A stretch of 62,396 nucleotides of DNA, the filler included, from Reclinomonas americana ATCC 50394 (taxonomy: Eukaryota): NCBI GenBank assembly GCA_048213135.1. It is 4 parts of 2 records of this genome, joined end to end, with 100 filler letters (N's around TTAATTAATTAA, not from the genome) between each part and the next. Parts side by side here need not be neighbours in the genome. Positions count along the whole stretch, not along the records: positions 21,058 to 51,891 come from PS015082.1; 3 more parts are not named here. One strand, 5' to 3'. Under the pieces are notes generated by a model that was given only the letters and a program-made list of their open reading frames with translations, was not told the DNA's origin and searched no databases. Within the stretch, counting starts at the first letter, position 1; every line of letters starts with the position of its first letter. Positions 22,607-52,894 of this stretch are shown piece after piece. A program made the position numbers and the translations under genes.

Positions 22607-25600
22607 TTATCTTACAGCATTCTGGCGAAGCATCAGTTCCTGCGCACTGGAGAGACCACGAATGCCGTCGACACAAGCACCACGCAGATGCAGCAGGTGC
22701 GTTCCGGCGCACCACTCCACGGGCACATTACAAGGATCGACGGACTCGTCCATGAGACTGGTCAAGTTCCACAGAAGGGCGGTACCATCGTCGCCACCGC
22801 TCTGCAACACACAAACAATGGTGAGCTGCATCCTTTTTGTACGTAAACGACGGAGAGTCAAGTCAGTACCAGCAAATTGTCGCCCGCAAAGCGCACGCTG
22901 CGAACTGCAGCTGTGTGCCCGGCCAGCGTCGCCACCGTGCGCCCCGTATCCAACGCCACCAGCACCACGTCGAGGCCATCGCCAGCCACCGCAGCAATCT
23001 TCGAGTCCGGCGACAGGGCCACCGAGTGAACCGTGCGAAGGCTGGTCTCGATCGTCAGCCAGCTTTCAAACGTCAACAGCGACCACTGCGTGAGGTGAGC
23101 GCGGTGAGACATACAAAATGGAAACTACATGCACACAACCGCAAACTCTCACCAAGCGCAGTGTGCCATCATTGGAGGCTGAGACGAGGCGCTCTCCTTG
23201 ACCCACAAAAGCCAAGCTGCGGAAGAAAAACACAAGTCTTTGTTTTCTTCTCAACACTCCTGATCTCGCAGCACGCACACACACCTGCTAATGGTACCGC
23301 GATGCCCAGAGAGAATGCGCAAACAGTCGGTCTCACTCCACAGCCGGATTGTGGTGTCGCGAGAACCCGAAACTACGCTGACGCCGTCCGGGGAGCACGC
23401 CACAGAGGTGACAGCATCGACGTGGCCAATGTGAGTGCGCAGTACGAGGCCAGTCGAGAAGAGCCAGCGTTGAACACCAAAATCCAGTGACCCAGTAATC
23501 AACAACGACCCGTCGGCAGAGAAATCTCCGCACGTCACCTCCGACGTGAGACCCGACAGAGTGCGCAGCAGAACAAACTGCTCCGCACTCCACACATGGA
23601 TCACCATGTCGCTTCCGAACGACAAGAGCAGTTGACTGTCGCGAGAAAAGAGAAGATTCTGCATGCACGTCGCCATTTGTGAGTGAGATCACAGCGGCAA
23701 GTGGTGCGCGGAGACGGAGGCGGCAGCTTACCAGCACCGGCGCTCGGTGTGCACTCAGACAGGCCAGCAGTCGCCCATTAGTCACGTTCCACACTCGAAC
23801 ATTGGCATCCTCACAAGAGGTGGCCAGTGTGCGACCATCGGGTGAAACCGCCACCGCCTGCACGCTGCCATGGTGCTCTTGACCGGCGGTGGGGGAACGG
23901 AAACTGTGGAGAAAGGAGCAGATGAGCACAGAAGGCGCAATCGAAACCACCTGGCGCAAGCCGCAAGGAAGCACCTGTCGTGTGGGCTCCACTGCGCACA
24001 CGTTGTGAGTCGACACGAGAAAGCAACCAGAAAAGATGACTGCATCACTCACCAAGCGCACTGCGCTGTCGCGACTGGCATAGATAACGGACTCTCCATC
24101 GTGCGTGAACACAGCCGCCGTTGGCCAGTCTGTGGGGCCGTGCTCAAGCGTGGCGAGAAGAACGCCAGTGATCGTGTCCCACAATCGCATGCCAAGGTCC
24201 ACGCACCCGGTGGCCAGCATGTGACCAACAGGTGAGAAGGCCAGGCACTGTTGGACCAGGGAGTGAGGCTCGCGTAAAATGTGGCGCTGTGGGCATGCCA
24301 CCAGCAACGCCGCGCAGCGTACCTTGACCATGCCTGGGTGAGACATTTCCAACACCGGCTTGTGGTCGGCATTCAAATCGGGTGCGGCATCAGCCGGCGG
24401 AGTCTTCCACAGCAACACACGTCGATCCAGTGACGCAGAGGCGAGTAGCTGGCCGTCGGGAGAAAAGGCAACATCGCTGCAAAAACGCCGCCAGTCAGAC
24501 ACCGAAATGACACTTGCAACGCCTGCTGCGTCTACCTGACTTCTTCGTGATGCCCGTGCAGGATGGCGAGTCGAGTACTCTGAGTGGCACTCCACACATA
24601 CACTGTGTTTCCGTCGCCTCCCGCGCCTATGAGTGCACCGTCGCCAGACGACGCGATGCAGGTCAAATGTTCCGGGAGCGTGTCAATGACCTTGCCGTCG
24701 CCCGAGGTGCGAAAGGGCCACGAGCGCACCGTGCCGTCATCGCCACAGCTCACAATCAGCGACCCACCAGCGAGGGCCAGACTCCTGCACAAAAGCAGAT
24801 GCGGAGTGTGTGAGAATGACCCACGATGAGCGAGTTGCGAAACAGTTCGTTCTCACCTGACCCACTTGGTGTGCCCGTTCAGCACGCGCAGACACACTCC
24901 TTTTTCCACATGCCACAGGCGGAGAGTGCAATCGTCACTGCCGGATACCACCATGGCAGAACTCGGCAGCCAGGCAACACATTCGATCATGCCCGTGTGA
25001 CCGGCGAGCACTCGCTCGCACTCAAACACCTCCGTGTCCCCTGCACACACGGTACCCGTCACTCACATCATTCACGACACAAAACACGCGCCACGCTGCA
25101 ATTCGACTACGCACATATCCGCAGCATCGAGTCCTTGCAGCCGGTGGCCAGGTGCAAACCACTGGCAGAGAGTGCCACACACATGACCCAGCCCGGATGG
25201 TGCATGTGTGGATGCATCCGAAGCACAGCGTCCGACAAGTCGGCATTCCGCAGATTGGCTCGCCGCAGCCACGCTTTCTCCAGCACTGCGTGTTGAAGGT
25301 GTGCACCCTCCAAATTCGTGCCATCGAGCCACGCCTGTGCAGTTGTCAGCAAAACGAGAGCAATCACGCACGCACACGGAGACAACAGACGCACTCGCGA
25401 AAAATCAACGTATGGGAGTCGCACGTGGGCCATGTTCTGGTTGGCAAACGAAAAGCTGGCCCAGTTGAGCACTGCACGGAGATAGAGAATGAGAGGCAAG
25501 AAAGAAATGCCGTTGAATCCATGGGAAAACAAGCACCCGTTGCAGCATTGCTGGCAGCGATGGCCATCTCCGGTCGCGTCGCAGAGCTCTGTACAATCTC

Positions 25601-28096: not shown

Positions 28097-28268
28097 CGAC
28101 GACGATACTGGCAGGACACATGAAAACGAAGGACATGGACTTTGTTGATGAAAACAAGTGTACATTCTTCATTGTCTGGCGGGTCTTACGGCGAGTTTAC
28201 CGGCGACGTTGAGCTGCGGAACGAGGGTAAGTTAGGCTCAACGTAGCTCGAATAAATGATTGCATCAC

Positions 28269-31200
28269 TTACCCCTCAGCCAGCAACGAAGCACGACTGC
28301 GAGGAGAAGAGGCTGGTAAGATAGCTGCGCCGCCAGCATAGAGACAATGGTGGTGGCTGACGCAACTTGGTGGGTGACAGAGTTCTCAAATCGATCAACC
28401 CAGATCGTCGAGCAACAGGGCTCTGCAATCATCACATGTAAGTCGTCAAAGGAACATGCACGACAACGACAACAATACTGATAACGCACCGCAACCTCAG
28501 CGTCGTGCACATCGACCGTGGTCTGCCGGAAAGAAAACAACCAACGTGAGAACACAAGAACCGCAATAGAAATGAGCACCCCCGATCGATCGACAAACCA
28601 AGGCGCCAGCGCCATAGGCAGAGAGCGCCGGAGGCGCTCCCTTGGCTCCCGACGGCTGCAGGAGGAACCAACGCAGGCCGGCATACAAGGCAAAGGCCAC
28701 GACGCCGCATCCCACAACAATCAGCAAAATGCAGTACCACTCGCAGGCGCACTTGTCCGACACGGCAGGCTTCACAACCACCACTGCAGGCACAAGCACG
28801 CACACGCACGCACGCAGAGCGAGAGACGCAGTGAGCATCTCTCCTACATGCTCGCCGCCGCCCAGCACAGCTTCACGCGCACCTGGTTCAAAGCTGCGAA
28901 CAATGGCGTACGTGCCATCGGCACATCCAACAGCAGTCAAATCGCCATTGGCACGATTGTACGTCTGCAATCCGCCGCATGCGGTCTCGGAGACCGACAG
29001 CTGTCCAGTGACCGGGTCGTACTTGAAGAGATGTGGATCGACGTCACCAACCTGCAAGACATACGACAAAAGAAGGTGAGAAACAATAGAAGCCGTCCGT
29101 CAGGCTTCACCACAGGCCAGACACGCAACCGTGGACGGAATGTTGATGGTTACGCCGCCAGAGGTCAGCCACTGGTTGTCTGTTCGCAGCGTGTCTCGCT
29201 GCGGCATCGTGCAAGCATTGTCTGTCGTGACCACGAAACCGTCGACAAAGGCCGACAGCTGCAGATATTCACGCAGACACGTGAGAAGAGCAAGTTCTCG
29301 GCAATGTGCGCACACTGACAAGACGTAACCGTGCGGATCGAAAGTGGAATCGCCTGATTGGAGGCGTCGACTGTCACCACCGTACTCGACGTCATGCAGA
29401 AGGTGGTCGGGCTGAAGTTCCACGTCACCGCGAATCCGGAGCGCGTGGTGACCGTCAGTGTCGGCGTCTGTGCGTCCGCATCTCCGGCGCCGGTGATGTC
29501 CGACGGATTCTCCACCTTCATGCGCATCACACCTGCGTATACCGCCCCCGCGCATGGTGTGAGTGCACATCCTCCTCCAATTTGACAGTCATGCGACACA
29601 ATTTTTGCTCACCGATATGATCGGCCAGCAGCGAACGCGTGAGCGGCACAGCTGTGCCCGTAGCCGTCAAGCCACTGCCATCGGCAACAGCGGTCACCGT
29701 GCACGAAATCGGCGCACTTGGGTCCGAAAACTGGTTCAGAACATCGCTCTCCGTCACGGTGTACGTCGTCAGCGGTGCCTGCACACCGACAGTCCACATC
29801 TCCGTGCTTGGAGTGCTGTAGTGACACACTCACGAGTCAACGAAACAAGCAACAACCAGCCAGAGTAGGAGACAGCGCCAACAAACCCAGTGCACGTGAT
29901 CACGGAGCGGGTCAGCGGCACGCCATTATTGCGCTGAATCCAGAAGAATTGGATGGTGCCGCCATTGTCAAGCACCGCAAAATTGACAGGGCGCGCAGGG
30001 ATGGTTGCGGGCGCTGTGGTACGAACAGCGACCGTCGCCCGTGAGCACAGACCACAAGTGCCAAGCAAGGAAACCGTCGAACGCAACGAGGTGTGGCCGC
30101 TGCAACGTCAGATGCCGGACCGAATCCGTCATACCTGTTGTTGGTCGCAAACACTCGAGCTTCGTACGTGAGGCCTGCACCCGAGTGGAGCAGTGAGTAA
30201 GTGTGTGCCACAGGTGATAATGGAGGCGAGAATTCTCGCGTTACGCACCTGGCGTGAGGCTGCCAGTGGTCACCGTCAGATCCGTGATCGAACCCGTCTC
30301 CGGAACTCGACGAGACCACGTGGTCGACCCTTGCAGTCGGTACTGCAGGTAGTACGCGTACGACGGCTGGAGAGAACCGGGAATCACCGGCGGCTGCCAC
30401 GTCCATCGAATCGAGCCAACATCGTCCACTGTGAATCCCGAGCCGACCAGCGACTGCGGTTCACCAGGAGCTGCAAACGATCACGATTCTTCGAGTCAGC
30501 GACAACAACACTCAACAGCAACAAAAAAGCACACGCCACGCACGAGCAGCAAGTGTGCGGATGGTAGAGGGGTCCGACAACCTCGAGCCGCTGTTGACGG
30601 TGCCCGAGTAGGCCGTCACTCGAATGTCCGAGTACTGCACACATGCATTACTATCATTGAGCACAATGCCACCCTTGTCCTTTCGCATTTTCCCCTCATA
30701 CACGCAACAGTGGTGTCCGGCGGCAACGTCAAGAACTTGTACAGAAGCTTGTCACGCTTGTCAAAGTCCTGCCACGGAATTCCCACTGTGGTTGGCGGGA
30801 ACGAATATGTCTGACCATCGTTACCGCGCATATCGATCTGGTAGCCCGACACCAAGTTGTCGACGTCGTCGGGGCACGGCTGCCACACCACCTCGAAACC
30901 AAACGGTGTTGCGTTCTGCACAGTCACGCTGGCCGGGCCGCTCGTGGCGAACGCTGCAATGCATTGCTGCATGAGTACTCTGCGAGCCAGCAACCATGCT
31001 CACCGACACCACGCCACGCAACTGTTGATTGCCAGCGTGCCATTCGGCACCGGCAAATATGCATCATCCGCAAACTGTCGCACACACAGTTTCAACACCG
31101 CCTTGACCCTGTACACAAATAACCACGCAGAAAATGAGCCGCAGCACGGCATAGCACATTCACAATGCCGTACTCAACGTCGACAGGACAGTGAACTGGA

Positions 31201-31929
31201 GCGTGCTCGTTCCAGTCAACGTGACAGGCGAGATGGTGGTGGTGGCGGCCTGGTTCGCCGAGCAGTCTTGGGTGGAACCGACGGCCTTCACCACCGAACC
31301 GGCGTTGAGACCGTTGCCGGTGATGCTCACATTGGACGTGACATTCGTCTGAATGCCAGTGGGCGACGACGAAATCAGCGCACCTGCAAGCATATCACAC
31401 GGGATTGAGTGAGAGAGAAGCATCCTACTGCATGCATGCAGAGTGGACGCCAACGCACCGCGGAAGCGAACGAGATCGTTCACAGCCTGTGCCGATGCCA
31501 CTGTGCCGTTGTACGACACGCACACCTTGAATGAGCCACTGGCCGTGGAGCTCAGTGTCAGCGGCACTTGCGACGCGGTGCGCCCAGCCGACGGTGCAGT
31601 CATGGTGATGGCTGCGGCGTTGGCGCCGCACATGGCAGCCGACTGCGAGATCGAAAACGCATCGTCGGATGTGAGCGCGTAGCCAGCCAGGACCAGCGAT
31701 CCAGTCGTGCCGACAGTAAAGTACACTGGTGTGGCCGGCGACGCGATGCTAGTCACAGAACCTGCCGCACATTATAGCACGCAATCGTCAAGAGAGCGCA
31801 CTTTACATGAATAGAACTGCCGCTACCAACACACCGATGACCAAAATGGGCGTGTCGGCGCCGGCTTGCACATACTTGGTGCGATTCGCAAACAAAATGC
31901 AAGCACGGAACCGACCACCAACCTGCGAG

Positions 31930-31975
<46 letters not shown>

Positions 31976-34900
31976 GAACAAACGTGCTTCAGCTCATTGC
32001 NNNNNNNNNNNNNNNNNNNNNNNNNNNNNNNNNNNNNNNNNNNNNNNNNNNNNNNNNNNNNNNNNNNNNNNNNNNNNNNNNNNNNNNNNNNNNNNNNNNN
32101 NNNNNNNNNNNNNNNNNNNNNNNNNNNNNNNNNNNNNNNNNNNNNNNNNNNNNNNNNNNNNNNNNNNNNNNNNNNNNNNNNNNNNNNNNNNNNNNNNNNN
32201 NNNNNNNNNNNNNNNNNNNNNNNNNNNNNNNNNNNNNNNNNNNNNNNNNNNNNNNNNNNNNNNNNNNNNNNNNNNNNNNNNNNNNNNNNNNNNNNNNNNN
32301 NNNNNNNNNNNNNNNNNNNNNNNNNNNNNNNNNNNNNNNNNNNNNNNNNNNNNNNNNNNNNNNNNNNNNNNNNNNNNNNNNNNNNNNNNNNNNNNNNNNN
32401 NNNNNNNNNNNNNNNNNNNNNNNNNNNNNNNNNNNNNNNNNNNNNNNNNNNNNNNNNNNNNNNNNNNNNNNNNNNNNNNNNNNNNNNNNNNNNNNNNNNN
32501 NNNNNNNNNNNNNNNNNNNNNNNNNNNNNNNNNNNNNNNNNNNNNNNNNNNNNNNNNNNNNNNNNNNNNNNNNNNNNNNNNNNNNNNNNNNNNNNNNNNN
32601 NNNNNNNNNNNNNNNNNNNNNNNNNNNNNNNNNNNNNNNNNNNNNNNNNNNNNNNNNNNNNNNNNNNNNNNNNNNNNNNNNNNNNNNNNNNNNNNNNNNN
32701 NNNNNNNNNNNNNNNNNNNNNNNNNNNNNNNNNNNNNNNNNNNNNNNNNNNNNNNNNNNNNNNNNNNNNNNNNNNNNNNNNNNNNNNNNNNNNNNNNNNN
32801 NNNNNNNNNNNNNNNNNNNNNNNNNNNNNNNNNNNNNNNNNNNNNNNNNNNNNNNNNNNGAGAGAGAGAGAGAGAGAGAGAGAAAGGAGTACGAAGCAAT
32901 GAGTTTCGCTGGTATACTCTCTGCTACTTTCAACCATATCCGTCGTACGCAACGAAGGGCGGCAGTGATGGTGGCCCCAGAGTCGGCCCACACATTCGTG
33001 TTTGCCTTGACGCACAACTGCAACAAAAAACGCACGATGAGTGGATAGTGACAAGGGTCGAAACTACGAGTTGGGAGACCCACCTTCAAGGTGATGCTTT
33101 GAGAGATCGACACGGACAAGGCAGCCGCCATTGCCGAGTTGGAGGTGATGGTGGCCGAATTCACCGACGCGTCATTGGTTGGCGTACCAGTGCACACACC
33201 CGCGGTCAGCGCAATGTCAGCCAGGCGATCGAGGTTCTCGCCCGTGAGATTGACGGTGGTCGGCACCGAATCGTTACTTGGACTGGCCACAATGGTGCTC
33301 GGTGTCACGTTGGCCACACCGATAGTAGCTGCGATGCGGAACACATCGATGCGTCAGTGAAACAGCACTCGAGATTGACAGCACATTGTTTGACGAGGTA
33401 CCTGCTTGCACAGTGATGTTCTTGCTAAAGTCCCACCACTGCACGCCCAGTTGCTCCAAGCACAACTGCACAACACCAATGAGTGAGATGAAGGATCCAG
33501 CAAGACACGGAAAGCCGCTTAACACCGACAATACCTTGTAAGTGCCGGCTTGAGACACAGACACGGACAGAGCGGCCGTTGTCGATGCCTTGGAGGTGAT
33601 GGTCAGTGTGGTCACAGCTGCGTCAGTGGCCGACGTGCCACACACGCCGTTGCTGGCCACAAGCTTCACCGCACTCATCGTGTCCAGTGCAGTTCCCGTC
33701 AGATTGACGGCAGTCGTCGAGCCCGCAGTCAGCGAGTTCGGCGCCACAGTGGTCAGCGTCACTGGTCGGAGAGAACGACAATAATAAGTGCCAAATGCAA
33801 CTGCCACGACAGACCGGTCGGTAAAACGCAACTCAGCGCCGCAGTGACAGTAAAGCCCGAATCGAGCCAGATGACGCTATTTTGTTGCACACACACCTGC
33901 GCGCGCGCACACAAAAGTTAGCACAGCGAGCGCAAAGCGGGCGATGTAGGATCGATAGCGTACCTTGAGCGTACCGGCCGCCGTCACAATCGTAGTGAAC
34001 GACGCGCTGGTGGCTGTCTTCATTGCCGCCACTGTCACGTTTCCGACGGAGGCGTCGTTTGTCGGTGTTCCCGAGCAGCTGCCATTGTTGGCAACCAGCC
34101 GCACTCCGCTGAGCTGATCCAGCGCTGTGCCGGTCAGATTCACCGTGTTGGCGAACGCCATGCTGGCGACCAGCGACGTTGGCGTCACGGCCGTGACCGT
34201 CACTGTTCGCGGTCAACGAACGATGAGTTGACAAGAAAGATGGAGAAAGCGCATTTTGAAGGAACTCAACTGATGGTGGATGCAATGGCGAATCCTGAGT
34301 CGTACCAAACGAGACTCGCTTGTTGTACGCACAACTGCAATTTGCGAACTTCAGCAACAGCACAGAGACCCGTGATGGCGTGAGGGGGCTTAGTAAACAC
34401 ACCTTCAGGGTCACGGTCTGCGTGATGGACACGGACAAAACCGCCGCTGCTGCCGTCGGCACTCCGTTGATCGACAAAGTGCCCACAGCGGCATGGTTGG
34501 TAGGAGTGCCTGCACAGGTGCCATTGTTCGCCACCAGTCGTACGGCCGTCAACTGGTCCAGAATGGTGCCCGTAAGGTTCACCGTGGTCGTCACGTTGCC
34601 GACAACCGCCGTCGGATTGACATTCGTCACGGTCACTGCGCAGCAATAACGGTTGGGTGAGTTGCTCCGAAACAACCGCGCAAAGACATACACACAGGCA
34701 TGAGAAATGTTACGCAACTGGTTGCCGCGGTAATCGTAAACGTCGAATCGATCCACACCGCACTGCCTTGTTGTACACACAACTACACGAAGAATTTTGT
34801 GTTGGGTCAGGAAGACGAAGCGGCGTACACGGAGCCAACAGAGATACGGGCGATAGATGAACCTTCAGGGTGATGTCCTGCGAAATGGACACAGACAACA

Positions 34901-37900
34901 CAGCTGCAGTGGATGCCGGCGTGCCAGTGATGGTCAGCGCCGCCACCGACGCGTGATTGGTCGGCGATCCAGTGCATGTGCCATTGTTGGCCACAAGCCG
35001 CACATTGGTGAGCTGATCGAGCGTAGTGCCAGTCAGATTGACGGCGTTCGCCACCGTCATGCCGGTCACCACAGTCGATGGTGCCACGTTGGTGACGGTC
35101 ACTGCGCGCAACAGTACCAACGGTGTGAGGTGCACCGCAACAAATCACGGTCATCATGAAGCGCACGCAACAAATCAGCGACGCAATCGTCGATCCCGAA
35201 TCAATCCACAGCAGACTGGCCTGCTGTACACAGAGCTGCACGACGCGCGAGAATACGTGAGTGAGCTGTCGACTCCAATTTAGCAACGCCCCAATAGAGC
35301 CGTGCAGTACCTTGAGAGTCACGGTTTGCGTAATCAGCACCGACAAAGCGGCCGCGCCGGCTGTCGGCGTGCCAGTGATCGTCGCCGTCGTCACAGACGC
35401 GTGGTTGGTTGGCGTGCCTGCACAGCTACCATTGTTGGCCACCAACCGCACTGCCGTCAATTGATCCAGAATCGTGCCGGTAAGGTTGACGGCCGTGGTG
35501 TTGTTGCCGACCACAGACGACGGTGTCACGTTGGTCACCGTCACTACGCGAACAAAAAGAACACAGGCGTGAGCAACACACACTAGTCGTCTGGTGCTAT
35601 TTTTCTCGTTCCGTCCCGGACGCAACTGGTAGCCGCGGTAATAGTGCGACCGGAGTCAATCCACACCGCACTTCCTTGTTGCACACACAGCTGCATTGTA
35701 GTGCACCGCAGTGAGCACGATGCACCGTATTACGAAGACAGAGAAGACAAGTTACGGACCTTCAGGGTGATGTTCTGGAGAATCGACATTGTCAGCACTG
35801 CAGCACCGGCTGTCGGTGTTCCATTGATTGCCAGCGCGGCCACAGAAGCGTCGTTCGTCGGCGTAGCCGCGCAGCTCCCATTGGAAGCCACAAGCCTCAC
35901 GGCGGTCAACTGATCCAACACTGTGCCGGTCAGATTCACTGTATTCGTGATCACCATGCCCGGAACCACCGTCGACGGAGACGCATTCGTCACGGTCACT
36001 GTCGATCACAACACAGGTCAGAAATGGCGATCACTACGCGCCGTAGAACAACAGGCGACTACGCAACGAATGGCAGCGCTAATCGTCAGCCCAGAATCAA
36101 GCCACAATGAGCTGCTCTGCTCAAAGCACAACTGTACGCACGCACAAGAGTCAGTAACCGATTGTAGACGGTCGGACTTGTCTTGCCGTACCTTCAACGT
36201 CACGCTCTGTGTAATCTTCACGGAGAGCGCGGCCATTGTTCCCGTCGGCGTTCCCACGATCGTCAGTGTTGCCACAGATGCGTCATTTGTCGGCGAGCCC
36301 GTACACATGCCGCCAGTGGCCACCAGTTTGACACCAGTAAGCTGATCCAGCGACGTGCCAGTCAGATTGACCGTCGTGGTATTGTTGCCGATCAGTGCCG
36401 ACGGATTTGCATTGGTCACGGTGACTGTGCAGTGTGCAGCAAAACCTCGTGAGCGCAAAGCAGACGCGGAATGGCACGCTCACACAATACCCAAGTACTC
36501 AACGAGCAGCAGCGCTGATAGTCGACCCGGAGTCAATCCACACAGTGCTGGCCTGCTGCACACACAGCTGTACAGAGGAGACGCAGCGTCAGCAATCGGG
36601 CACAAAAGTCATTCACTGTCTTCGCAGCTCACCTTCAGCGTAATGCTTTGTGAGATGGTCACGGACAGCGCAGCCGAGGTCGCCGCCGGTGTGCCAGTGA
36701 TCGACAGATTTGCCACAGCAGCGTGGTTGGTCGGCGTGCCAGCACACGAGCCATTGTTGGCAACCAATCGCACAGCCGTCAACTGATCCAGCGTCGTTCC
36801 TGTCAGATTCACAGCCGTTGCGCTGTTGGCCGTAATCGAAGCCGGCGCCACATTCGTCACCGTCACTGCGCGGCAAGGCAATGACATGAGTGACAAGCGC
36901 AGCGCTGTTGCAAGACACTAGGTGCAACGCACGAATTGCTGCGGTAATCGAGAACGTAGAATCGATCCACACTGCACTGCCTTGTTGCACGCACAGCTGC
37001 ACAGAGGAGACACCACATCAGAACTGACGCAAGTGCACAATCAAATATGTCTCTGGAACTCACCTTCAGCGTGATGCTCTGTGACAGTGTCACCGACAGT
37101 GCCGCCGAGGTCGATGCTGGTGTGCCAGTGATCGACGCGTTCGTCACAGCAGCGTGGTTGGTCGGCGAGCCAGCACATGTGCCGTTGCTCGCCACCAATC
37201 GCACAGCCGTCAGCTGGTCCAGCGTCGTGCCGGTCAGATTCACAGCCGTCGCATTGTTGCCAATGATCGATGTCGGGGTCACATTCGTCACAGTCACTGT
37301 GTTGCACGGAGCACACACAACGGCCGTCAGTACGCACACCAGCCACTTGCTTCAGCACCATCAAACAATCAGCCACGCAACTGATTGTGGATGTGATCGA
37401 GAATGTCGAGTCGATCCACACCGCGCTACCTTGTTGCACGCACAACTGCGCACAGAAGACATCACGTTAGAATTGACGCACATGAACAATACAAGTACCA
37501 TTCCGAACTCACCTTCAGTGTGATGCTCTGTGACAGAGTCACCGACAGTGCCGCCGAGGTCGATGCCGGTGTGCCGGTGATCGACGCATTCGTCACAGCA
37601 GCGTGATTAGTCGGCGAGCCAGCACACGTGCCATTGCTTGCCACCAGTCGCACAGCTGTCAGCTGGTCCAGCGTCGTACCGGTCAGATTCACGGCAGTCG
37701 CATTGTTGCCGATAATCGATGTCGGGGTCACATTCGTCACGGTCACTGTGTTGCACAAATCACACAGAAGCTGTCAGTACACACACCCAACTTGCTTCTG
37801 CACCATCAAACAATCAGCCACGCAACTGATTGTGGATGTGATCGAGAATGTCGAGTCGATCCACACCGCGCTACCTTGTTGCACGCACAACTGCACAGAG

Positions 37901-40900
37901 GAGACACGGTGTCAGTATGAATGCAAATGAGCATCCAGTGCCTTAAGAACACACCTTCAGTGTGATGCTCTGTGACAGCGTCACGGACAGCGCAGCAGAT
38001 GTCGACGCCGGTGTGCCAGTGATCGACGCATTCGTCACAGCAGCGTGGTTGGTCGGCGAGCCAGCACACGTGCCATTGCTTGCCACCAGNNNNNNNNNNN
38101 NNNNNNNNNNNNNNNNNNNNNNNNNNNNNNNNNNNNNNNNNNNNNNNNNNNNNNNNNNNNNNNNNNNNNNNNNNNNNNNCGGACAGTGCAGCAGAGGTCG
38201 ATGCCGGTGTGCCAGTGATCGACAGATTTGCCACAGCAGCATCGTTGGTGGGCGTGCCGGCGCACGTGCCGTTGCTCGCCACCAATCGCACAGCCGTCAG
38301 CTGGTCCAGCGTCGTGCCGGTCAGATTCACGGCAGTCGCATTGTTGCCGATAATCGATGTCGGAGTGACATTCGTCACAGTCACTGTGTTGCACGAGCAC
38401 ACAGCAGCTGTCAGTACACGCAACAGCCACTTGTTTCTGCACCACCAAACAATCAATCGCGTAACTGATTGTGGATGTGATCGAGAATGTCGAGTCGATC
38501 CACACTGCACTGCCTTGTTGCACGCACAACTGCGCACAGAAGACATCACGTCAGCGTTGACGCACATGAACAATACAAGTACCATTCCGAACTCACCTTA
38601 AGTGTGATGCTCTGTGACAGAGTCACGGACAGTGCCGCCGAGGTCGATGCCGGTGTGCCAGTGATCGACAGATTTGCCACAGCAGCATCGTTGGTGGGCG
38701 TGCCGGCGCACGTGCCGTTGCTCGCCACCAACCGCACAGCTGTCAACTGGTCCAGCGTCGTGCCAGTCAAGTTCACGGCCGTCGCATTGTTGCCAATAAT
38801 CGATGTCGGGGTCACATTCGTCACAGTCACTGTGTCGCACAAATCACACAGAAGCTGTCAGTACACACACCCAACTTGCTTCTGCACCATCAAACAATCA
38901 GCCACGCAACTAATCGTGGATGTGATCGAGAACGTCGAGTCGATCCACACCGCGCTACCTTGTTGCACGCACAACTGCGCACAGAAGACATCACGTTAGA
39001 ATTGACGCACATGAACAATACAAGTACCATTCCGAACTCACCTTCAGTGTGATGCTCTGTGACAGAGTCACCGACAGTGCCGCCGAGGTCGATGCCGGTG
39101 TGCCGGTGATCGACGCATTCGTCACAGCAGCATGATTAGTCGGCGAGCCAGCGCATGTGCCGTTGCTTGCCACCAATCGCACAGCTGTCAGCTGGTCCAG
39201 CGTCGTGCCGGTCAGATTCACAGCCGTCGCATTGTTACCGATAATCGATGTCGGGGTCACATTTGTCACAGTCACTGTGTTGCACGAGCACACAGCAGCT
39301 GTCAGCACACGCAACAGCCACTTGTTTCTGCACCACCAAACAATCAGCCACGCAACTGATTGTGGATGTGATCGAGAATGTCGAGTCGATCCACACCGCG
39401 CTACCTTGTTGCACGCACAACTGCACAGAAGAGACACGAAGTCAAAATTGACGCAAATGAACAAGCAAGTGCCTCAAGAACTCACCTTCAGCGTGATGCT
39501 CTGTGACAGTGTTACCGACAGTGCCGCCGAGGTCGACGCCGGTGTACCAGTAATCGACGCGTTAGTTACAGCAGCGTGGTTGGTCGGCGAGCCAGCACAT
39601 GTGCCGTTGCTTGCCACCAATCGCACAGCCGTCAGCTGATCCAGCGTCGTGCCGGTCAAGTTCACGGCAGTCGCATTGTTGCCGATAATCGATGTCGGGG
39701 TCACATTTGTCACAGTCACTGTGTTGAACAAGAAAATGGCTGTCAGTACACCGACCACTTGCTTCTGCCATCAAACAATCAGCCACGCAACTGATTGTGG
39801 ATGTGATCGAGAACGTCGAATCAATCCACACTGCGCTACCTTGTTGCACGCACAACTGCACATAGGGGACACGACGTCAGAATTGACGCAAATGAACAAT
39901 ACGAGTACCATTCCAAACTTACCTTCAGTGTGATGCTCTGTGACAGCGTCACGGACAGTGCCGCCGAGGTCGATGCCGGTGTGCCAGTGATCGACAGATT
40001 TGCCACAGCAGCATCGTTGGTGGGCGTGCCGGCGCATGTGCCGTTGCTCGCCACCAACCGCACAGCTGTCAACTGGTCCAGCGTCGTGCCAGTCAGATTC
40101 ACAGCCGTCGCATTGTTGCCAATGATCGATGTCGGAGTGACATTTGTCACAGTCACTGTGTCGCACAAATCACACAGAAGCTGTCAGTACACACACCAGC
40201 CACTTGCTTCTGCGCTATCAATCGATTAGTCACGCAACTAATCGCCGACGTGATCGAGAATGTCGAGTCGATCCACACCGCGCTTCCTTGTTGCACGCAC
40301 AACTGCACAGAGGAGACACGACGTCAGAATTGACGTAAATGAACAAGCAGGTGCCTCAAGAACTCACCTTCAGCGTGATGCTTTGCGAGATAGTCACCGA
40401 CAGTGCCGCCGAGGTCGATGCCGGTGTGCCAGTAATTGACAGATTTGCTACAGCAGCATGGTTCGTCGGCGAGCCAGCACACGTGCCATTGCTTGCCACC
40501 AGTCGCACAGCTGTCAGCTGGTCCAGCGCTGTACCGGTCAGATTCACAGCCGTCGCATTGTTGCCAATGATCGACGTCGGCGTCACATTCGTCACGGTCA
40601 CTGTGTACGGTGAGTGCACATATTGAGTGAAAAGCCCAACACAATTGACAGCAGGGGGATACTCAACTAATGACGGACGCGACGGTGAATCCAGAGTCCA
40701 GCCACGTGCTGTTGTTCTGCTGGACACACAACTGCAAAACGAAACGGAACTCTAAACTCAGCCATCTCGGGCGACCACATGAGCACGCCAAGCTGCACAA
40801 CACTAAGTGAACCTTCAGCGTAATGTTCTGCGAGATCGTGGCAGACAGCGTGGCGGTGGTCGAAGCAGTGCCTGTGACAGTCAACGCCGTCACCGATGCG

Positions 40901-43900
40901 TCGTTGGTGGGCGTACCGGTGGTGCAGCTGCCGTTGGTGGCAATAAGCACCGCGCTCGTGAGCTGGTTGAGTGTCGTGCCTGTCAAATTCAGCGTGGTCG
41001 CATTGTTGCCAATCACAGACGTCGGCGTGACGTTGGTGACGGTGAGACCCACAGTTGCTGTGGCAGCAGAGGGTACGGTCGTGAGTGGCAAGCAAGCAAA
41101 CGAGTGCGTGCACAGATGCAGCAGCACCTGAGCCGGTAATCGTGTACGTCTTCGTGAAGCACTTGCTGCTGTTGTCGACACCACGCACAATGACCGTGTA
41201 CGTCCCGACCGCCAAATTGGCAGCAGTCAAGCGCAGCTCATTCGTATTGGCGACCGTAAACGACGACTGGTCAGCACCACCGACGACACTCCACGTGACA
41301 GGCGCTGATGCTTGCGCCGGTGCAGTCAGTGTGCCAACGAGCTGGTTAGCAGTCGATGGCGCACTGAAAGTCGACGACGAAATTCCAGCATCCCAAGCCG
41401 GTGCTTCATCTATCAGTGTACGCACGAACACGAATGAGACTGGAAGGCGGCACACGGCTCAGGATGGCAGCAGGGAATCAACTCACTGGCATACAATGTA
41501 TACGGTCCGTTGACGGCCGCAAACGTGCCCTTTGGCGTAATGTTGCCAGCCTTGCCAAACACACTGGTGAGTCCTTGTGTGTTGGTGAACAGCGACTTGA
41601 TGTAGATTCTGTCCATACATTGTCATGACGATAGTAGGTCAGCACGAGGATTCAAACGATCAGTACACGGCAAAAGCACACTCACGTTCCTGCCGCAATG
41701 TCAGCCGCAGACGCTGTAAACGTCGACTGGCTTGCGTTCAGATTCGATGTGTCGGTCTTGTCGCCAAGCGAAGTGCTCTCGTCGTTGGACCGGTAGATGC
41801 GAATGCTGCACAGCAGTCCTCGCATGAGTTCATGGCACTGTGTGTGCGTACGTGTAGAAGCATGACATACCCGCGTGTCGCAATGCCACTCTTGCCGTCA
41901 AGAGACACGCCGCCGTCGTGAAGCGGGTGATTCAGCACCACCGAGATGTCAGAGCATTGGTTGCCGACCACGGCACTCGCAATGTTCGAGAACCCAAACG
42001 GCGGCACTGCACCAAATGTCATCAGCGTGAACCACACAGGCGCCCACTACTTTGCGGGCAACAAACACGCACCAGCAATATTTGCAGTTGCCGTGATGGC
42101 CAGTGAGAACTTGACGCCGGGGGTCGACGGCAGAATGCGCGCCTACAATGACAACAGGTGAGCCTCCCGAGTCAAGATATCCAACTAAGAGGCAGGATAA
42201 CGCAACGTAGATGTAGGCGCGGTAAGTGCCCGCAGCTGCGTTGGTAACAGTCACACGCTCCTCCAGGTTACGCGTGTCGGTGTTGGACATGATAGCAGCC
42301 GAGCCGCTCACGGTATTGCTCGTCGGGAAGCCAGTCAGTGAGTTGCCGATCTGCACCAGTGTCTCGACGCCGTTGTCGACACGCACCAGCACCAAGTTCA
42401 AATCACTGCATCACACAAACGAAATCAATCAGCCTGCCTTGGGGAATCACAACGCGCGGAGCGCAGGAGACAAATGACGCAACTTGAGGATTGCAATTGC
42501 ACCAGACACATTGCCGAACTCAGTCCACGCCAGCGTCATGCGAAGCTGCTCATATATCACGAAACGACAGTCAGCAGTGAGCGGCAATTTTTTCGTCATC
42601 ACGGTGAGACACGCAACATTCGCAGTGCCGGTGAGGATGAAATTGTAAACGCAGCCGTTGGTGAATGAGAACGGAGTCGCCCATTGCACTGTGTCGACCG
42701 CGGTAATCGTCGAGCCTTCGGCTTCAAGCGCGTACGAACGCGGCGACACAGAGTTCGGGGACATAATGTTGTTCAGCTTCACAAGACCGTACCCTGCGGT
42801 CACCGTCGATTGCGGATGCGTTAGGCGACGGGAACAAAAGTGCAAATGGAAAGGTGACACGACCACTGACCGAACAGGTACGACTTTTGCAACTCGGTGA
42901 GAGTCGAAATCTGGTACTGGAAGAATGTCGGTGGGTTGTTGGCCGAGTTACTGGCATCGCCACCGTAGTAGCCGGTGTCAGGCAGACGATCGGCAGAGTT
43001 GATAAGCAGAGCGCGCATCAGTGACGCCGGGGGCTTGGTGAATGGCACCGCGTTTGTGCCATTGGCGTTGGGCGCCATCGGATAGCTCGTTGTCAGGTAC
43101 TCGCGGAGGAGAGCTGTGTTTGGGACCATAATTAAGAAGGCATTGTGCACGGCCAGCTTCGCATTGTAAGACGCACCAGCAACACCGGCAACAGCAGCAG
43201 TGGGCGGGAACTCCGAGGCAATAGAAAAGCGCTGTGACACGTTGCATGCAGCGTCGTTATCCAGACCGACATGCTTGCACACGTTGGTGCTGGTAACTGC
43301 GCATTCGCTGGCGGTAAGAACCGAGCTACAACATACAAATGGTCAAGTGTGCACCACAAGCGACGCACTTGTACGACTTCCAGATCCACACGCATTGGTG
43401 TCCGGCGCAAGCGACTGGTCATACGCAAACGCAGAGCGGACGGCCTGTCCTGGAGCCACCACTTGGATTCCGTAACGTCCGTCAATCGGCGTGCCCGAAG
43501 TATATCCACCGGCAGGGCCTGTGCCACGAAACAACAACGTGAGAAGAAGCACAACACAGTAATGCTGTGCGCACAGTTGCGCCAGACCTGGCACGGAATA
43601 GTACGCCATGTCATCCTGTGTACAAAAAAACCGTCAACTTTGTCAAAAACCCACAAACCGAATTGTAGTCAGGCACACACGAGCACATCGACTCAACGGG
43701 TGTCCACACGACGCCAGTCGTGTAGTTTTGCTTGTAGTCCGAGCGACTGGCGCCCACCGTAAGCGAGTTCTTCAGCAGACCAATGCCACGCACGGTGCTG
43801 ACAAATGTCGCAAAGCTGGCACCGTTCCACGGAATGTTTCCCGGATTGACAATGCCGAGCATGTTCTAATACAAGCAGTGTGCAGCTTCGGATGAGCGAC

Positions 43901-46808
43901 GAAAGTAAGCGAGAATGAGCAATGAGTGACAGCAGTCACACCGTGGCATCAGGGTAGTTTTGCGCGGCGGTGGTACCCGAGCATCCACTGAGACAGCCTG
44001 CGTTGTTGGTCAGATCACACGCCACTATTGAAGCGACGTGAAGAGTGCGACTGCCTACCAGCGTAGAAGTGATCGTACACACGCTCGGTGGCACTGTACG
44101 CGTTCGATGTTGTTGATTCACTGCGCACGCGCACAAATAGCAAGTTAGCGGTGAGTATGAAATGGTGGTAGGAGACCAGGATGAGACAGAGAAAATGGGG
44201 ACTCACCCATGCAGCACGATGTACGCTCTGCAAAATCACGCATAGAATTAGAAGAAGAAAATTTAATAGAAGCGAGGGAGTGAGAAGACAAACGCAACTG
44301 ATTCTGTAACAGATGACGTAGAACGACATGAACACGTTAGCGAACCCCGAAAAGACACACACAAAGCACGGACGTACGAACCGACATCAAATGACCCATC
44401 ACATAGTTGAGCGTGGCACTGGTGTACCGGGGAGTAGTCGCCGTTCCGGTCAAAAAAGTAGTAGTGCAACCGGTGGTGGGAGTGACGTTGCAACCAGTGT
44501 CATGAATGATCAGCTTGGCGTCGGTAGCGATGCCGTTGAATCCAGTGATGAAATTGTTCGCGTCATTTGCGTTGGCATTACCGGAGATGGTACCAGCCTA
44601 CAACACAAATACAAGATCAGCTCAGAGGCGAGTTCAAGTCCTCCTGCTGCGGCAAAGCAAACCATGTGGGTTCCGTTGGATGGGGATGGTGCATCGAACT
44701 TGTCTGTGTACACGCAAAAAAACAGGCGCGGACAGTGCGAGAGTTAGTGATGCAGCGTACACAGACACTGTGCACAACCCTCTCACTCACCGACAAGGTT
44801 GACGTACACCAGAATCTGTCATGGCAAGCATACGACAAGCAAAAGTCAGTCAACATCACTCAACCACGGCAGAGCGCAGTGCAGCATGGCAAACCTTGCG
44901 GTGATTGGTGTTGACAGTGGTGTCGCTGAAAATGTTGGAGCCCGTAAACGTGCTTCCGGGCACACTGAACGTGACTGCACTGTTCGGATCGTGGAAGAAG
45001 CAGTTGAAGTAATCGACGCCGGACACGTTCATGCCTGCAGCAAACGGAGTCAGCAAAACAGTTATCGTGTGATACACGCCCAGCAGATGCGCACCGATAC
45101 GCTGGTTCTTGCCCGACAACACGCCGACAAACGGTGCCGTTCCCACGGTACCAGACTGCACAATGCCGATGACCGACGAGTTGCGCGTGGAGATGTTGGA
45201 GCGTGTGTGCGAATCGGTGACGGTGGTCGACACACTGGTGGAATCGGCGGCAACTGGCGCAGCCGAAAGCTGCTGCTGCTGCTGTTGCGGCATAAAGTTG
45301 GCTGGAGAAATATCTTCCGGCACGCCAATCGGCGACTCGATCTGGGGGCCGGAAGTGAAGAATGAGAACAGGTGCGGGACCGCAACAGAAACGTGTGCGG
45401 CAACCGAGACGCAACGTAAGCAAACATGACGTTCGGCAGCGACAATACTGCGCTCACGGCGCGCGGCATGTCGTAAAAGTCGCCAAAGTTGAGCGCCAGC
45501 ACGCCATGTGCACCGGCCGTCACGTCGGCCAGTCGCGCTGTGGGAATGGGATTCAGCACAGTGCATTGCACTGAAAAACTTCATGCATACCACACACACT
45601 CACCCCGAATGCCGTGCTCGTTAAAGGTGACCATCAGGCGCTCGGCAAACTGCTCTGGCGAGATACCGTTCGGGTGACGCGCCACCTCAATGTGCACAGT
45701 CGCCCACCGGTCTCCGAGCGTCTCGTCGTCCTTCATGAAGCGCGACGCACGCGATCGCAAATGCCACGCATCATCCCACTTCTCACCACGATGCAGCAGC
45801 ATGGCACGCACATGCGCCTCCACGTCCTTGGTCGACTCGTCCACCTTTAGCGCAGCAGTCCAGTCACCAACCCAGGCAATGTCATTGCCCATGCGCTCAC
45901 GCAGTCGCTCCACCGCCGCGTCATCACAAATCACGCGGAATGCGCGCTGCACACACAGAGAGATAGAGAGAGAGAGAGATTGTCGAGTCAAACCACATGC
46001 GCTCCGCACGGGCACACATTGCATTCACTCACTCACCTCATGAAGATAGTCGATGGAGATGTCATGAATCGTGCTCCCCTTGGGCGCCGACTGCACGGAG
46101 CGCAAAGTGAGCGTGAGTGATTGGGAGGGAGAGAGTATGTGTGGGTGGGAGAGAGAGTGTGAGAGAGGCGTCCATCCGCACGTGTTTGCGCCATTTTTCC
46201 GGCACGAAGCATGTGGCGCAGCATGCGCATGTCGAGTGGTAAAGGGAGGAAAAGACAGCGCGAGTGCGAGAGAATAACCACACAGATAATACCACAAACA
46301 AGCACGTGAAAAAGCACACTCTCTCACGCACCGCGTCATGACAACAAACAAACACACACAGACATGAATCTTGCATTCACGCAACTTCCAGGATAATGTC
46401 AACCATGCGCAACGTGGTGGCCGGCTCCACACGCACATGATTACGCAGCGCAATGATGCGCACACGGAGGCCCGCAGTGGCGGCAGAGACGTGCAAGTCG
46501 CGCACCATGCCATCTGCAGCATCTCCGCCCTCTCCACGCACACGCGCGCCCTCCGCCTGCACAGTCGTCACGCGCGTCGAGTGCCACTGCAACTCCGGGT
46601 GCAACTCCGGCGGGCGGTCGAGCGGGCCACTGGTTTGCAGAGAGAGGAGACCCGCCACCACATGCGCAGTGTCCGCGGGATACGACCAGCCTCCGCGCTG
46701 CACCATGTGTGTCGTCTCTTCAGCATGCTGTGGCAACACCGCCACACACAGTGGCGCGATGACAAGCAGCAGCGCCACTGCGATGGCCACCAAGTAGGCG
46801 TGACGCAT
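28269..46808 (-). CDS. Giant type-I membrane glycoprotein: signal peptide, inactive KP-43-like S8 subtilase with C-terminal beta domain, FN3-like and cadherin-like domains, about 20 TIG-like repeats, FN3 domains, TM helix, short tail
   Basis: Signal MRHAYLVAIAVALLLVIAPLCVA. S8 motifs NGTHMAGTISG, KNSLTVGAS, DGRYGIQVVAPG, PASLMRALLINSA, GYGLVKL, LRMTLAWT, RNLEERV. Cadherin-like NEAP...VGTL...YTVIVRGVD. TM YCILLIVVGCGVVAFALYAGL (~28680-28745). The exons I checked between the subtilase and the repeats join in frame; there are two N gaps inside. Confidence 0.82.
32947..41055 (-). repeat. Tandem array of about 18-19 two-exon units (~440-450 nt period) encoding ~100 aa TIG/IPT-like domains
   Basis: Recurring large exon (TVTNVTPTSIIGNNATAVNLTGTTLDQLTAVRLVASNGTCAG.PTN.A.V...ITLK) plus small exon (LCVQQGSAVWIDSTFSITSTI). 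Central units also share near-identical intron sequence. Confidence 0.95.
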
Positions 46809-47073: not shown

Positions 47074-48419
47074 TCACTCATGATCAACAGCGGTCTCTGC
47101 GACGTCGCCGTCCACCAGGAGTACGCGAAGAGGGCGGTCATGGTCCACGCCATGGACTGTCCGGTGGAGCACCACTGCCGGGGATGATGGAGAGTTGGCG
47201 TATTGCTGCAGGTCGCAAGCTGCCATGCTGTCTATCAGCAAGGTGAGCGGAACCTCCCCGCTCACCTCGACGGCTTCTGTGAGCGCGAGTTCCACGCGCT
47301 CAAGCATGATGCGCGTGCTCTCCGGCAGCATGTGACCCGGGCACTGTTCTGCCTCGGCGCCGTCTTCGTCTGCCGCCACCAAGCGGACAGTGAGTGCGGC
47401 CACGTAGTGTCCGACCACGTCGAGCACAAACACGTGCGGCAGCGGCAGCGGGCCTTGTCGCGCGTCGGGCTCGGCGTACGTGTACAGTGGGCGCGCCTCG
47501 TGCAACGAGAGCAGGAAGGCCGGTTTGCACACGTTCCGTTCTCCCTCCAGTACACACAGACCGCCAACCGGTCGCTTCCGGTTCCGAATGGTGTCGGCGT
47601 CGAGGCGACTCAACTCGAGGAACCCCAAGCGAAAGTCCACTTGCATCAGCGCCACGTCACTCACATCCTCTGCTTCCTCCTTCAGCACAGGTGGTGGTGG
47701 CACACACGACTCCTCCAAGTATGTGCGCCGATCAATCGCCGAGTCGCCACACCACTCCAAATAGAACTCTCGACTCGCCTCCTCTCGCCTCTTGGAGCTC
47801 ACATCCACAAAGCGCTGCCGATACAAGGTCACACCCGCCGAATCCGCATCACCACTACGCAGCCACGCCGCCAACTCAAACACCGCCACCATACTCCTCA
47901 CAAACATGTCGTCGACCGCATGCCCACAATGAGCAGCATAGTCGCGTCGCCACGCCAATGTGCGCCGCATGCATCGTGCCACCGTCGGCAACACACACTC
48001 GGGACACACAGCGCGACGCAGTGCACGCATCAGGCGCGGCACGGAGAGACGAGTGCGCGTGGCCACCGCGTGATGCACAAACGCCGCCAGGTGAATGGCC
48101 GCAGCAGCAGAGGTCCACCCACACAACTCCACACCGCGATCGCCCAACAGTGACTCGCTCAACTCAGCAGCCGCATCGCAGTGCTGGTCGAATCCCTTCA
48201 CCGCGACAATCATTGGACAGGAGCGAGGCGTCGTCCTGTGAACGTTACTTCTTGTTGTCAATTAGTGTGAGCGATGCCAGTGGGCCCGCACCTGCACCGC
48301 GTGTTCCTCCAACACGCGGTGCCTGTGGCGCCCTCATCAACCACCTCGCCAACCGCCGAGGCCATTGCCTCTCTCGGGGTCGACGCACTCATGTCGATGA
48401 CCTCGCCGGCCGCCAACAT
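47074..48419 (-). CDS. Unknown protein, possibly a divergent CRAL-TRIO/Sec14-like lipid-binding protein
   Basis: 395-codon open frame plus a likely upstream exon. RCMRRTLAWRRDY and MLERVELAL....GEVPLTLLIDSM weakly recall CRAL-TRIO motifs. Confidence 0.4.
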
Positions 48420-51631: not shown

Positions 51632-52894
51632 TTACTTCTTCTGCTCCTGACCCTGCGTTAAATCGGCGATGGCTGTAAGCACTCAAGCGAGAACACAGTG
51701 CACACGTAACACGCCACACAATCACCCACCTTGTTCTTCTTGCCACCCTGCTTGGGCTGAGGTGCTGGCGACGCGGCCGGGGACTGCGGCGGCTTCTGCT
51801 GCTGCTGCTGCGGCTTGCCTTGCTTGCCCTGCTTGCCACCCTTCTCACCCTGAGGGGCGGGCGAGGCAGCCGGAGACTGCGGCGGCTTCTGNNNNNNNNN
51901 NNNNNNNNNNNNNNNNNNNNNNNNNNNNNNNNNNNTTAATTAATTAANNNNNNNNNNNNNNNNNNNNNNNNNNNNNNNNNNNNNNNNNNNNAGCCGGAGC
52001 CTGCTGCTGCTGCTGCGGCTTGCCTTGCTTGCCCTGCTTGCCACCCTTCTCGCCATTGGCCGCCGGAGCCGCCTGCTTGGCCTCCTGCTTCACCGCCTTC
52101 TGCGGCGGCTCGCCCTCCTGCGGCTTGCCCGACGCTGCCCTCTTCTTGCCAGCCGCAGGCTTCTCCTCCTCGCTGCTGCTGCTGTCGTCGTCATCGTCCA
52201 GATCCATCTCATCATCGTCAGAGAACTCATCCTCCTCCTCGCCCTCCTCACCGAAACCACTACACTACAAGTCAGCTCACGGACAATCAATCATGCATCC
52301 TTGCAATGAAAAACGCAACAGCTCCTCGACTGAGGCCTCGTAGTAGCCAGTCAGGTGCACAGTGCCGTTGCCACTGACGCTGAAGCTGACCTCGCTGCCC
52401 TCGCTAAAGACGACATTCAGAGGCACGTTCTCGCACAGGCCCGTCTTGAAGTTGGCCAGCACAAACTTGTCCTCGTTGATCGACACGTACAGCGTCGAGC
52501 GCTCGTTGGCCGGCGACTTGGGATCAAGCGCCGCCTGCATACGCAAAAAAGAAGAGAGAGAAAAAAAAGTTGGTCTTTGGAAAGAAAATGCAAACGTGGT
52601 GCACATGCACATGTGCACGAGACAACCACTTTTTTTCTGTTTTTTCTTTTCTCTCTCTCTCTCTCTCGCACATGCAGTCTCTCGCTTCAGCACATGCACG
52701 TACCTGAGTAACGCGGAGACTTGCGCCTGTGCATGCGCAAAGAAACATGATAAAAGTCAGTCGTTGTTTTTCTCTCTCTCTCCGCATTGCACTCGCTCGT
52801 TGTGTAAAAGCAACGCACCCTGCGGCACCTCCGACGCGAACGACTTCTTGGGGGCGATCTCCAGCCCGAAGAACTGCACTGGTTCCATATGCAT
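51632..52894 (-). CDS. Nucleoplasmin-like (NPL) domain histone chaperone, HD2/FKBP-NPL type, no PPIase domain visible
   Basis: QFFGLEIAP, LRVTQAAL, KFVLANF, LNVVFSEGSEVSFSVSGNGTVHLTGYY, then an acidic tract and a K/Q-rich tail ending GQEQKK*. Confidence 0.85.
51936..51947. other. Artificial scaffold linker TTAATTAATTAA
   Basis: N-flanked 12-mer in the middle of the NPL gene. Confidence 0.95.

Follow-up and report, generated by a model that had tools for sequence, protein, structure and literature searches.

Could a single gene of a protist encode a subtilase fold that has lost its catalytic function and is carried far from the membrane on a long stalk of repeats? This question is raised by positions 28269 to 46808 of a stretch of DNA from Reclinomonas americana ATCC 50394 (GenBank assembly GCA_048213135.1). 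The whole stretch that was analysed, here called the window, is 62,396 nt long with filler included, and its positions 21,058 to 51,891 come from PS015082.1. A preliminary description of the locus proposed one 18.5 kb minus-strand gene for a giant surface receptor, with a signal peptide, a prodomain, a catalytically dead S8 head, FN3-like and cadherin-like domains, about 20 TIG-like repeats, a transmembrane (TM) helix and a short tail. Much of the proposed architecture holds up. We favour, with moderate confidence, a single gene, rich in introns, whose product would be a type I membrane glycoprotein with a pseudo-subtilase head, a repeat stalk and a TM helix, and which likely serves in non-catalytic recognition.

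The locus is not a single open reading frame (ORF). Of 45 ORFs of at least 150 aa on both strands, none spans it, and none of the eight plus-strand ORFs inside it carries a Pfam family. On the minus strand, short coding stretches alternate with segments of 60–100 nt that start with GT and end with AG, in a window of about 57% GC with many short introns and several N runs. Gene structure was derived from the genomic sequence alone, by a dynamic-programming splice parser that combined codon log-odds with donor and acceptor weight matrices and was retrained on its own output. The parser output was then curated by hand, and the repeat part was rebuilt from profile matches and conserved splice sites. 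The resulting intron-rich gene starts with the ATG at 46808, ends with a frame-consistent TGA at 28267–28265, and has 77 GT–AG exons that encode at least 3,811 aa, interrupted by two assembly gaps. Its curated 5′ part, from the ATG to 32954, consists of 61 GT–AG exons and 3,052 aa with no stop codon, and its 3′ part, from 31889 to the stop, consists of 16 exons and 759 aa curated by hand. The extent proposed earlier for the gene was borne out, as a chain of exons and not as one open frame. The features of the model, in the order in which they would be translated, are the following.

46728–46808, minus strand: start codon (46806–46808), the first ATG past an upstream stop, and predicted signal peptide, residues 1–27
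45416–46727, minus strand: propeptide-like N-terminal region (exons 46808–46386, 46090–46037, 45946–45604 and 45537–45416); tentative label
42768–45113, minus strand: divergent KP-43-type subtilase (S8) catalytic-like domain, residues ~391–846, in about 13 exons, from local HMMER and hhalign
42067–42545, minus strand: KP-43-type C-terminal beta-jelly-roll (LRMTLAWTEF...NDLNLV...GTYRAYIY...KFSLAI) in three exons, from HMMER
41487–42006, minus strand: linker of about 125 aa in three exons, in frame by GT–AG splicing, with no family found
41128–41403, minus strand: single-exon Ig-like domain, PKD-like rather than cadherin-like, from Pfam
32954–41057, minus strand: array of 19 visible 99-aa repeats, each with an exon A of 233 nt (227–245 in outer copies) and an exon B of 64 nt; introns of 60–90 nt
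38090–38179, no strand: N run of 90 nt within one repeat unit
32001–32859, no strand: N run of 859 nt between the repeat array and the 3′ part
31023–31889, minus strand: two divergent repeats after the gap, one of them in the single exon 31761–31459
29330–30953, minus strand: three to four FN3-like segments with W..W/P patterns, mostly assigned by eye
28674–28739, minus strand: TM helix WYCILLIVVGCGVVAFALYAGL, KD19 2.59
28265–28673, minus strand: cytoplasmic tail of about 57 aa in four exon pieces, with the TGA at 28267–28265; hand-curated GT–AG junctions

The two ends of the model are those of a type I membrane protein. Signal peptide and TM helix were called by a hydropathy scan, in which the signal peptide is the hydropathy maximum of the model (KD19 3.10, residues 7–25). 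Across 3,811 aa there are two strongly hydrophobic 19-mers (KD 3.10 and 2.59), and the next best reaches 1.55. The ATG at 46808 was the only Met start with a signal-peptide-like sequence in a scan of 46900–46700. By hydropathy the model combines an N-terminal signal peptide with a single C-terminal TM helix, and these elements and the short tail were recovered as first described. With an alternative GTAAGT donor just 5′ of the stop, the short tail would differ slightly. The model contains 98 NxS/T sequons, 79 of which fall at or beyond residue 1191, in the part that comprises the PKD-like domain and the repeat array. From these features we infer that the protein is located at the cell surface.

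The head appears, at the level of remote homology, to consist of a strongly diverged subtilase domain of the KP-43 type and the jelly-roll that belongs to it. KP-43-like proteins were fetched with a degenerate VNDLDLV DNA pattern because an NDLNLV motif follows the G.G.V box in the window. The pattern matched 14 of 401 Bacilli genomes, and five of the 15 loci fetched for this family were subtilases. Their alignment, called A1, matched PDB 1wmd at 2.9e-258 and SubHal 5fax at 2e-251 and therefore represents the KP-43 family; an enlarged profile of 125 sequences was made from A1 and the best 120 of 7,905 relatives. In HMMER, the head as produced by the uncurated parser scored 26.6 bits with the 5-sequence profile and 30.8 bits, in four colinear pieces, with the 125-sequence profile. 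Shuffle controls (1,000 full shuffles and 1,000 window-shuffles per profile) reached maxima of 4.9/5.2 and 5.3/4.5, respectively. The spliced head matched the KP-43 profile by local hhalign at 98.1% over 435 columns (E 1e-13), and all 16 splice variants that combine four doubtful junctions gave 97.6–98.6% (E 1e-13 to 7e-16). Independently of any gene model, four of the five best matches among 1,801 window ORFs fell colinear in the head, each at an E of 1.8–3.5.

The likeness extends to the order of domains. The oxidatively stable KP-43/SubHal subtilases of Bacillaceae (PDB 1wmd, 5fax) have the same colinear propeptide, catalytic domain and C-terminal jelly-roll. Here the jelly-roll gave the best single HMMER pieces (22.8 bits over columns 467–568 and 20.6 bits over columns 480–579, a score to which the fetching motif adds) and directly follows the catalytic domain, as in the KP-43 subfamily; the bacterial relatives have PF04151 on this part. 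Boxes common to KP-43 and the head are GTH.AG, TVGAS, DGR...APG, the helix after Ser and G.G.V, and the jelly-rolls share L.W.., NDL.LV, GTY and FSLA. The head differs from KP-43 in large insertions, in a His-to-Asn change and in a degenerate Ser box, and identity, as given by profile alignment only, is about 30%. On these grounds the predicted domain is closest to the KP-43/SubHal lineage, which excerpts of one study equate with MEROPS S08.123 (PMC9549277). The gene is unlike KP-43 in being eukaryotic and multi-exon and in its fusion to a stalk of about 2,800 aa and a TM helix. Upstream of the catalytic-like domain, the propeptide-like sequence is about 290–360 aa long; its exons have no Pfam family, and greedy hhalign placed KP-43 propeptide columns 2–97 on residues ~100–200 with low to moderate confidence. 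The prodomain of the preliminary description stands in this provisional form, and its S8 fold stands on the profile match of the spliced head, no exon reaching Pfam Peptidase_S8.

Searches with the 152-aa exon of the Ser region gave leads and no sequence relative. In the ESM atlas, the top three matches (0.82–0.83) all carry PF00082 and the ten best family-carrying matches are all Peptidase_S8; both results are leads only. No homologue was found among 966 candidates (proteins up to 2,000 aa), a PDB sequence search gave no match, and none of 90 pattern matches at metagenome loci was confirmed. A phmmer search of 1.84 billion representatives returned one match, a 530-aa internally repeated protein without an S8 family, which was judged spurious.

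Some junctions within the head allow more than one choice. A candidate 5-nt micro-exon (44299–44303) has perfect consensus acceptor and donor flanks, and together with a 21-nt exon (44207–44227) it keeps the frame and gives a better match by eye to KP-43 at the strand before the NSWG box. Profile scores are even-handed between inclusion and exclusion of the two exons. Two candidate introns (45035–45094, 60 nt, and 43114–43176, 63 nt) have lengths divisible by three and contain no stop, so that the frame is open either way, and their removal improves the alignment to the KP-43 family.

Whether the head could act as a protease depends on a few codons, which are listed here with the alignments that identify them.

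45024–45026, minus strand: codon GTG (Val400), first candidate for the catalytic Asp; VAVADTG aligned to IGMNVSG with confidence 5, in the full-length greedy hhalign only
44922–44924, minus strand: codon GAC (Asp434), rival candidate for the catalytic Asp, in FSDTTVNTNH; alignment of the truncated head
44675–44677, minus strand: codon AAC (Asn461) at the catalytic His position; GHGTHVAG aligned to SNGTHMAG
43145–43225, minus strand: degenerate serine-box region, with Ser720/Ser723 in RFSIASEFPP or His746 in LAVHNAFL

The change of His to Asn461 was found in all four alignments with an hhalign confidence of 7–9, the best-supported column of the whole alignment. The motifs HG[TS]H and G[TS]S[MFLAI][AS] do not occur in any frame of 46808–42000. 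To our knowledge, active S8 enzymes keep the G-T-S box almost without exception. The position of the catalytic Asp depends on the alignment: Val400 lies in the context GMNVSGVD with His 11 residues further on, much as in KP-43, and Asp434 presumably comes closer than Val400 to the general subtilase box and the usual Asp–His spacing. For the catalytic Ser, hhalign with the spliced head places the column on Ser720 with a confidence of 1–3, and exon-only hhalign of the following helix would, by extrapolation, place it on His746. The candidate in-frame 63-nt intron (43176–43114) alters the serine-box region, with a slightly higher score. The oxyanion-hole Asn is kept as Asn588 (AAGNEG vs VNPGNI, confidence 5). 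Since the catalytic His is replaced by Asn and the serine box is degenerate, the head most likely does not cleave peptide bonds, and we regard its inactivity as a protease as probable. The earlier view of a dead head is supported by Asn461 and by the lack of canonical HG[TS]H and G[TS]S boxes, and is qualified by the ambiguous status of Asp and Ser.

Behind the head and linker, the stalk is built mainly from one repeated unit. A hidden Markov model profile of the repeat gave 19 exon-A and 17 exon-B matches, strictly alternating from 41043 to 32955, and TRF gave a tandem period of 445–449 nt for the array, in keeping with the count of about 20 repeats given at the outset. Every repeat unit has conserved acceptor and donor sites, and the canonical model is in frame with no stops. 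Among 14 complete units (91 pairs), identity was 0.74 in exon A, 0.70 in exon B and 0.63 in both introns. Over the same 91 pairs, differences in exon A amounted to 0.44 at codon position 3 against 0.166 at positions 1 and 2, a 2.7-fold excess which is the signature of protein-level selection in the reading frame of the model. Each repeat has two Cys and about four N-glycosylation sequons.

The copies are not equally alike. Central copies (36628–40606) are 95–100% identical in exon A protein, and outer copies 52–74%; such central near-identity with outer divergence is the pattern expected of concerted evolution or recent expansion. Copy number is uncertain at the 90-nt gap, because its flanks overlap in profile coordinates (exon-A columns 1–68 and 32–77), and this gap probably resulted from repeat collapse in the assembly. 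The two repeats beyond the 859-nt gap are 17–27% identical to the array copies, share four invariant columns with them and again contain the KLCV motif. Together with the 19 copies of the array, they would give a stalk of at least 21 repeats. A (TG/CA)n microsatellite at about 31940–31993, presumably intronic, comes directly after the 859-nt gap.

The domain labels given to the stalk in the preliminary description fared less well. First, the TIG label stayed below the Pfam threshold. The whole repeat domain is split over two exons and family scans were made on single exons; TIG (PF01833) was found in one of six repeat exons scanned, at a Pfam E of 0.12 and 12.8 bits (cut-off 20.9), and the same exon also matches Qn_am_d_aIII at 22.2 bits (cut-off 22). 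In the atlas, the repeats fall near eukaryotic hypothetical clusters at 0.83–0.86, some with TIG, namely at rank 3 (0.85, 41% of members with TIG) and rank 16 (0.83, TIG in every member), which are leads only. The repeat profile had no match among 7,998 candidates (proteins up to 2,000 aa) and a chance match only in PDB (E 7.7), and none of 184 pattern matches at metagenome loci was confirmed. AlphaFold predictions were of low confidence for exon A (16 rows, predicted local distance difference test score (pLDDT) 51.5) and for the single-exon domain after the gap (14 rows, pLDDT 47.1). Bacterial TIG domains for a local profile gave zero and then two matches in five genomes, which are too few. 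The repeats may be described as Ig-like, and possibly TIG. Second, no cadherin family matched any exon in Pfam at E up to 10, and exon 41128–41403 leans towards a PKD-like domain, with a sub-threshold match to K319L-like_PKD (E 7.7e-5, 23.1 bits, cut-off 27) and one to Big_13 (E 0.028). Third, fn3 (PF00041) matched exon 30709–30951 only and below threshold (E 0.043, 14.5 bits, cut-off 25), in a test that is weak for domains split by introns.

Several observations weigh against an inactive KP-43-type head on a single gene. Pfam Peptidase_S8 (PF00082) was found in none of 125 ORF pieces and none of 29 exons at E up to 10. A generic S8 profile made from 80 bacterial proteins, fetched by a His-box DNA motif, scored −3.1 bits on the spliced head and gave no signal on the window ORFs. 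Two single exons reached only 7–8% probability by hhalign, though at the expected columns. Choosing the family through a motif that the window itself shows raises the jelly-roll score to some extent, and the head junctions were partly curated by hand with the KP-43 alignment in view, though the uncurated head already scored 26.6–30.8 bits. Asp434 and a Ser are possibly kept; if so, a single base (AAC vs CAC) would decide whether the head is inactive, and the claim of a dead head rests largely on one codon known from a gapped draft assembly. Both N gaps lie within the gene, that at 32001–32859 separating the stalk from the TM part.

The strongest alternative is that the head is active and that the gene encodes a membrane-anchored subtilase, such as a sheddase or a surface-processing protease, with Asp434 and Ser720/Ser723 in place and Asn461 either a base-call error or compensated. 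It can draw on the alternative alignment, in which an Asp is preserved within DT.V..NH at a distance of 27 residues N-terminal to the His position, on the Ser that aligns to the catalytic Ser with low confidence, on the retained oxyanion Asn, and on the single base that separates AAC from CAC in a gapped draft assembly. However, the replacement falls on the column of highest confidence (7–9), a G-T-S box is lacking in every frame, and the head is so divergent that the 1.84 billion representatives gave no match apart from the spurious repeat protein. An active enzyme is unlikely on this balance, and an inactive head remains our preference.

A second alternative, which we consider somewhat less likely still, is that two or more genes or a mis-assembly are involved, so that a secreted subtilase-like protein stands beside a separate repeat and TM protein, or the 859-nt gap joins unrelated parts. 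The N runs at 32001–32859 and 38090–38179 leave room for it, as do the linkers with stops in six frames elsewhere in the window, if these are read as contig stitching; on that reading the window would be a draft put together from contigs, and its N runs would mark joins of the assembly. However, the introns from the head to the first repeat are only 60–93 nt long, have consensus sites and keep the frame, and a scan of 42200–40500 found no Met start with a signal-peptide-like stretch at the junction. On the 3′ side of the 859-nt gap, the same repeat family goes on, there is no credible start, and the only TM helix is found there. These short in-frame introns, the lack of an internal signal-peptide start, and the repeats and TM helix beyond the gap favour head, stalk and TM part as one gene with a single transcript. 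A decaying or unexpressed relic specific to the lineage would suit a gene that is an orphan at sequence level in every search, but is very improbable for 77 exons without a stop or frame break and with a clear third-position excess among the repeats.

Under the preferred reading of one gene with a non-catalytic head, a signal peptide would be followed by the propeptide-like region and the divergent KP-43-type subtilase domain with its jelly-roll. This head would be carried on a long stalk made up of a PKD-like domain, 21 or more Ig-like repeats of 99 aa and FN3-like modules, and the chain would end in the only TM helix and a short tail. Held far from the membrane, the head would serve in binding or recognition without catalysis, and the role is most likely that of an adhesin or receptor, in which the head might be a ligand-binding or decoy module as was first suggested. 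A more speculative extension, which we put forward as doubtful, is that the protein represents a lineage-specific class of eukaryotic receptors. Here a subtilase pseudoenzyme, whose propeptide is perhaps never released, would be a ligand-sensing head for cell–cell, mating or prey recognition. A glycosylated rod of at least 21 Ig-like repeats, which homogenise rapidly, would keep it tens of nanometres away from the membrane or the surface of the flagellum. Such a class would parallel, among eukaryotes, the bacterial CspC-type use of a protease fold as a sensor.

Compared to known systems, each part of this plan has a precedent. Excerpts of one study describe Dictyostelium TagA and TagC as ABC-type membrane proteins with a subtilase domain and place them in an "amoebae pyrolysin" subgroup of their own, apart from the KP-43 (OSP) clade (PMC9549277). 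As described there, they resemble the present gene as a protist subtilase domain within a membrane protein, and differ in that the partner is an ABC transporter and not an Ig-like stalk. Clostridioides difficile CspC and CspA are presented in excerpts of two reports as S8 pseudoproteases whose triads are incomplete and which serve for sensing or regulation (PMC6636752, PMC7200643). So described, they are a precedent for a subtilase fold in binding, with a likeness at the family level; they differ in that they are soluble proteins of bacterial spores and lack both a stalk and a TM helix. C5a peptidase and lactocepin follow a plan in which an S8 head sits on FN3/Ig-like domains tethered at the surface. 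SpyCEP, a Gram-positive cell-envelope proteinase, likewise has a surface-tethered S8 head on FN3/Ig-like domains according to the excerpt available (PMC7113628). Cell-envelope proteinases differ from the present protein in being active, bacterial and anchored to the wall by sortase, with far fewer stalk domains.

TIG/IPT-repeat surface proteins, including plexin/MET, fibrocystin and Dictyostelium TgrB1/C1, are type I membrane proteins that function in recognition or adhesion; their Ig-like repeats are numerous and their tails short. We know of none with a subtilase head. The present protein would have a similar layout, with a subtilase head in addition and with repeats that are possibly TIG. 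In this eukaryotic gene the ideas of a subtilase on a stalk and of an S8 pseudoprotease come together; the stalk is far longer, and the anchor is a TM helix. The preliminary description had not recognised this architecture in any described protein, which is fair at the sequence level since sequence searches found no relative, although the design principle is already known. Word searches of the open-access literature found no paper on a subtilase head with a TIG stalk, which is weak evidence for novelty.

If real and expressed, the gene would be a rare eukaryotic instance in which a subtilase fold has been put to use at the cell surface without catalysis. It would further illustrate neatly how a giant repeat stalk evolves in concert with a fixed two-exon unit, and would place a protist on the short list of S8 pseudoenzymes, tractable for studies of localisation, binding partners and repeat-number variation. 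No long-standing question is opened by it; domain shuffling is frequent among the giant surface proteins of protists.

Elsewhere in the window, pieces of several other genes were recognised through Pfam, and an open frame lies just upstream of the gene. The families on these pieces would suit a flagellate eukaryote that has a PEP carboxylase.

4300–4974, minus strand: ORF piece with SelR
6714–8261, minus strand: ORF piece with phosphoenolpyruvate (PEP) carboxylase
14595–15080, minus strand: ORF piece with the SPEF2 C-terminal domain
23254–24682, minus strand: ORF piece with WD40
25110–25598, minus strand: ORF piece with pentapeptide repeats
47077–48261, minus strand: open frame of 395 aa just upstream of the gene, with no Pfam family
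52280–52756, minus strand: ORF piece with a nucleoplasmin-like domain
60563–61820, plus strand: ORF piece with PADR1 and BRCT (PARP-like)

The 395-aa frame could represent a neighbouring gene or else GC-rich sequence without coding function. Three segments of 100 nt (20958–21057, 51892–51991 and 57234–57333) each consist of 44 N, TTAATTAATTAA and 44 N, which looks like a spacer with stops in all six frames of the type used for contig stitching.

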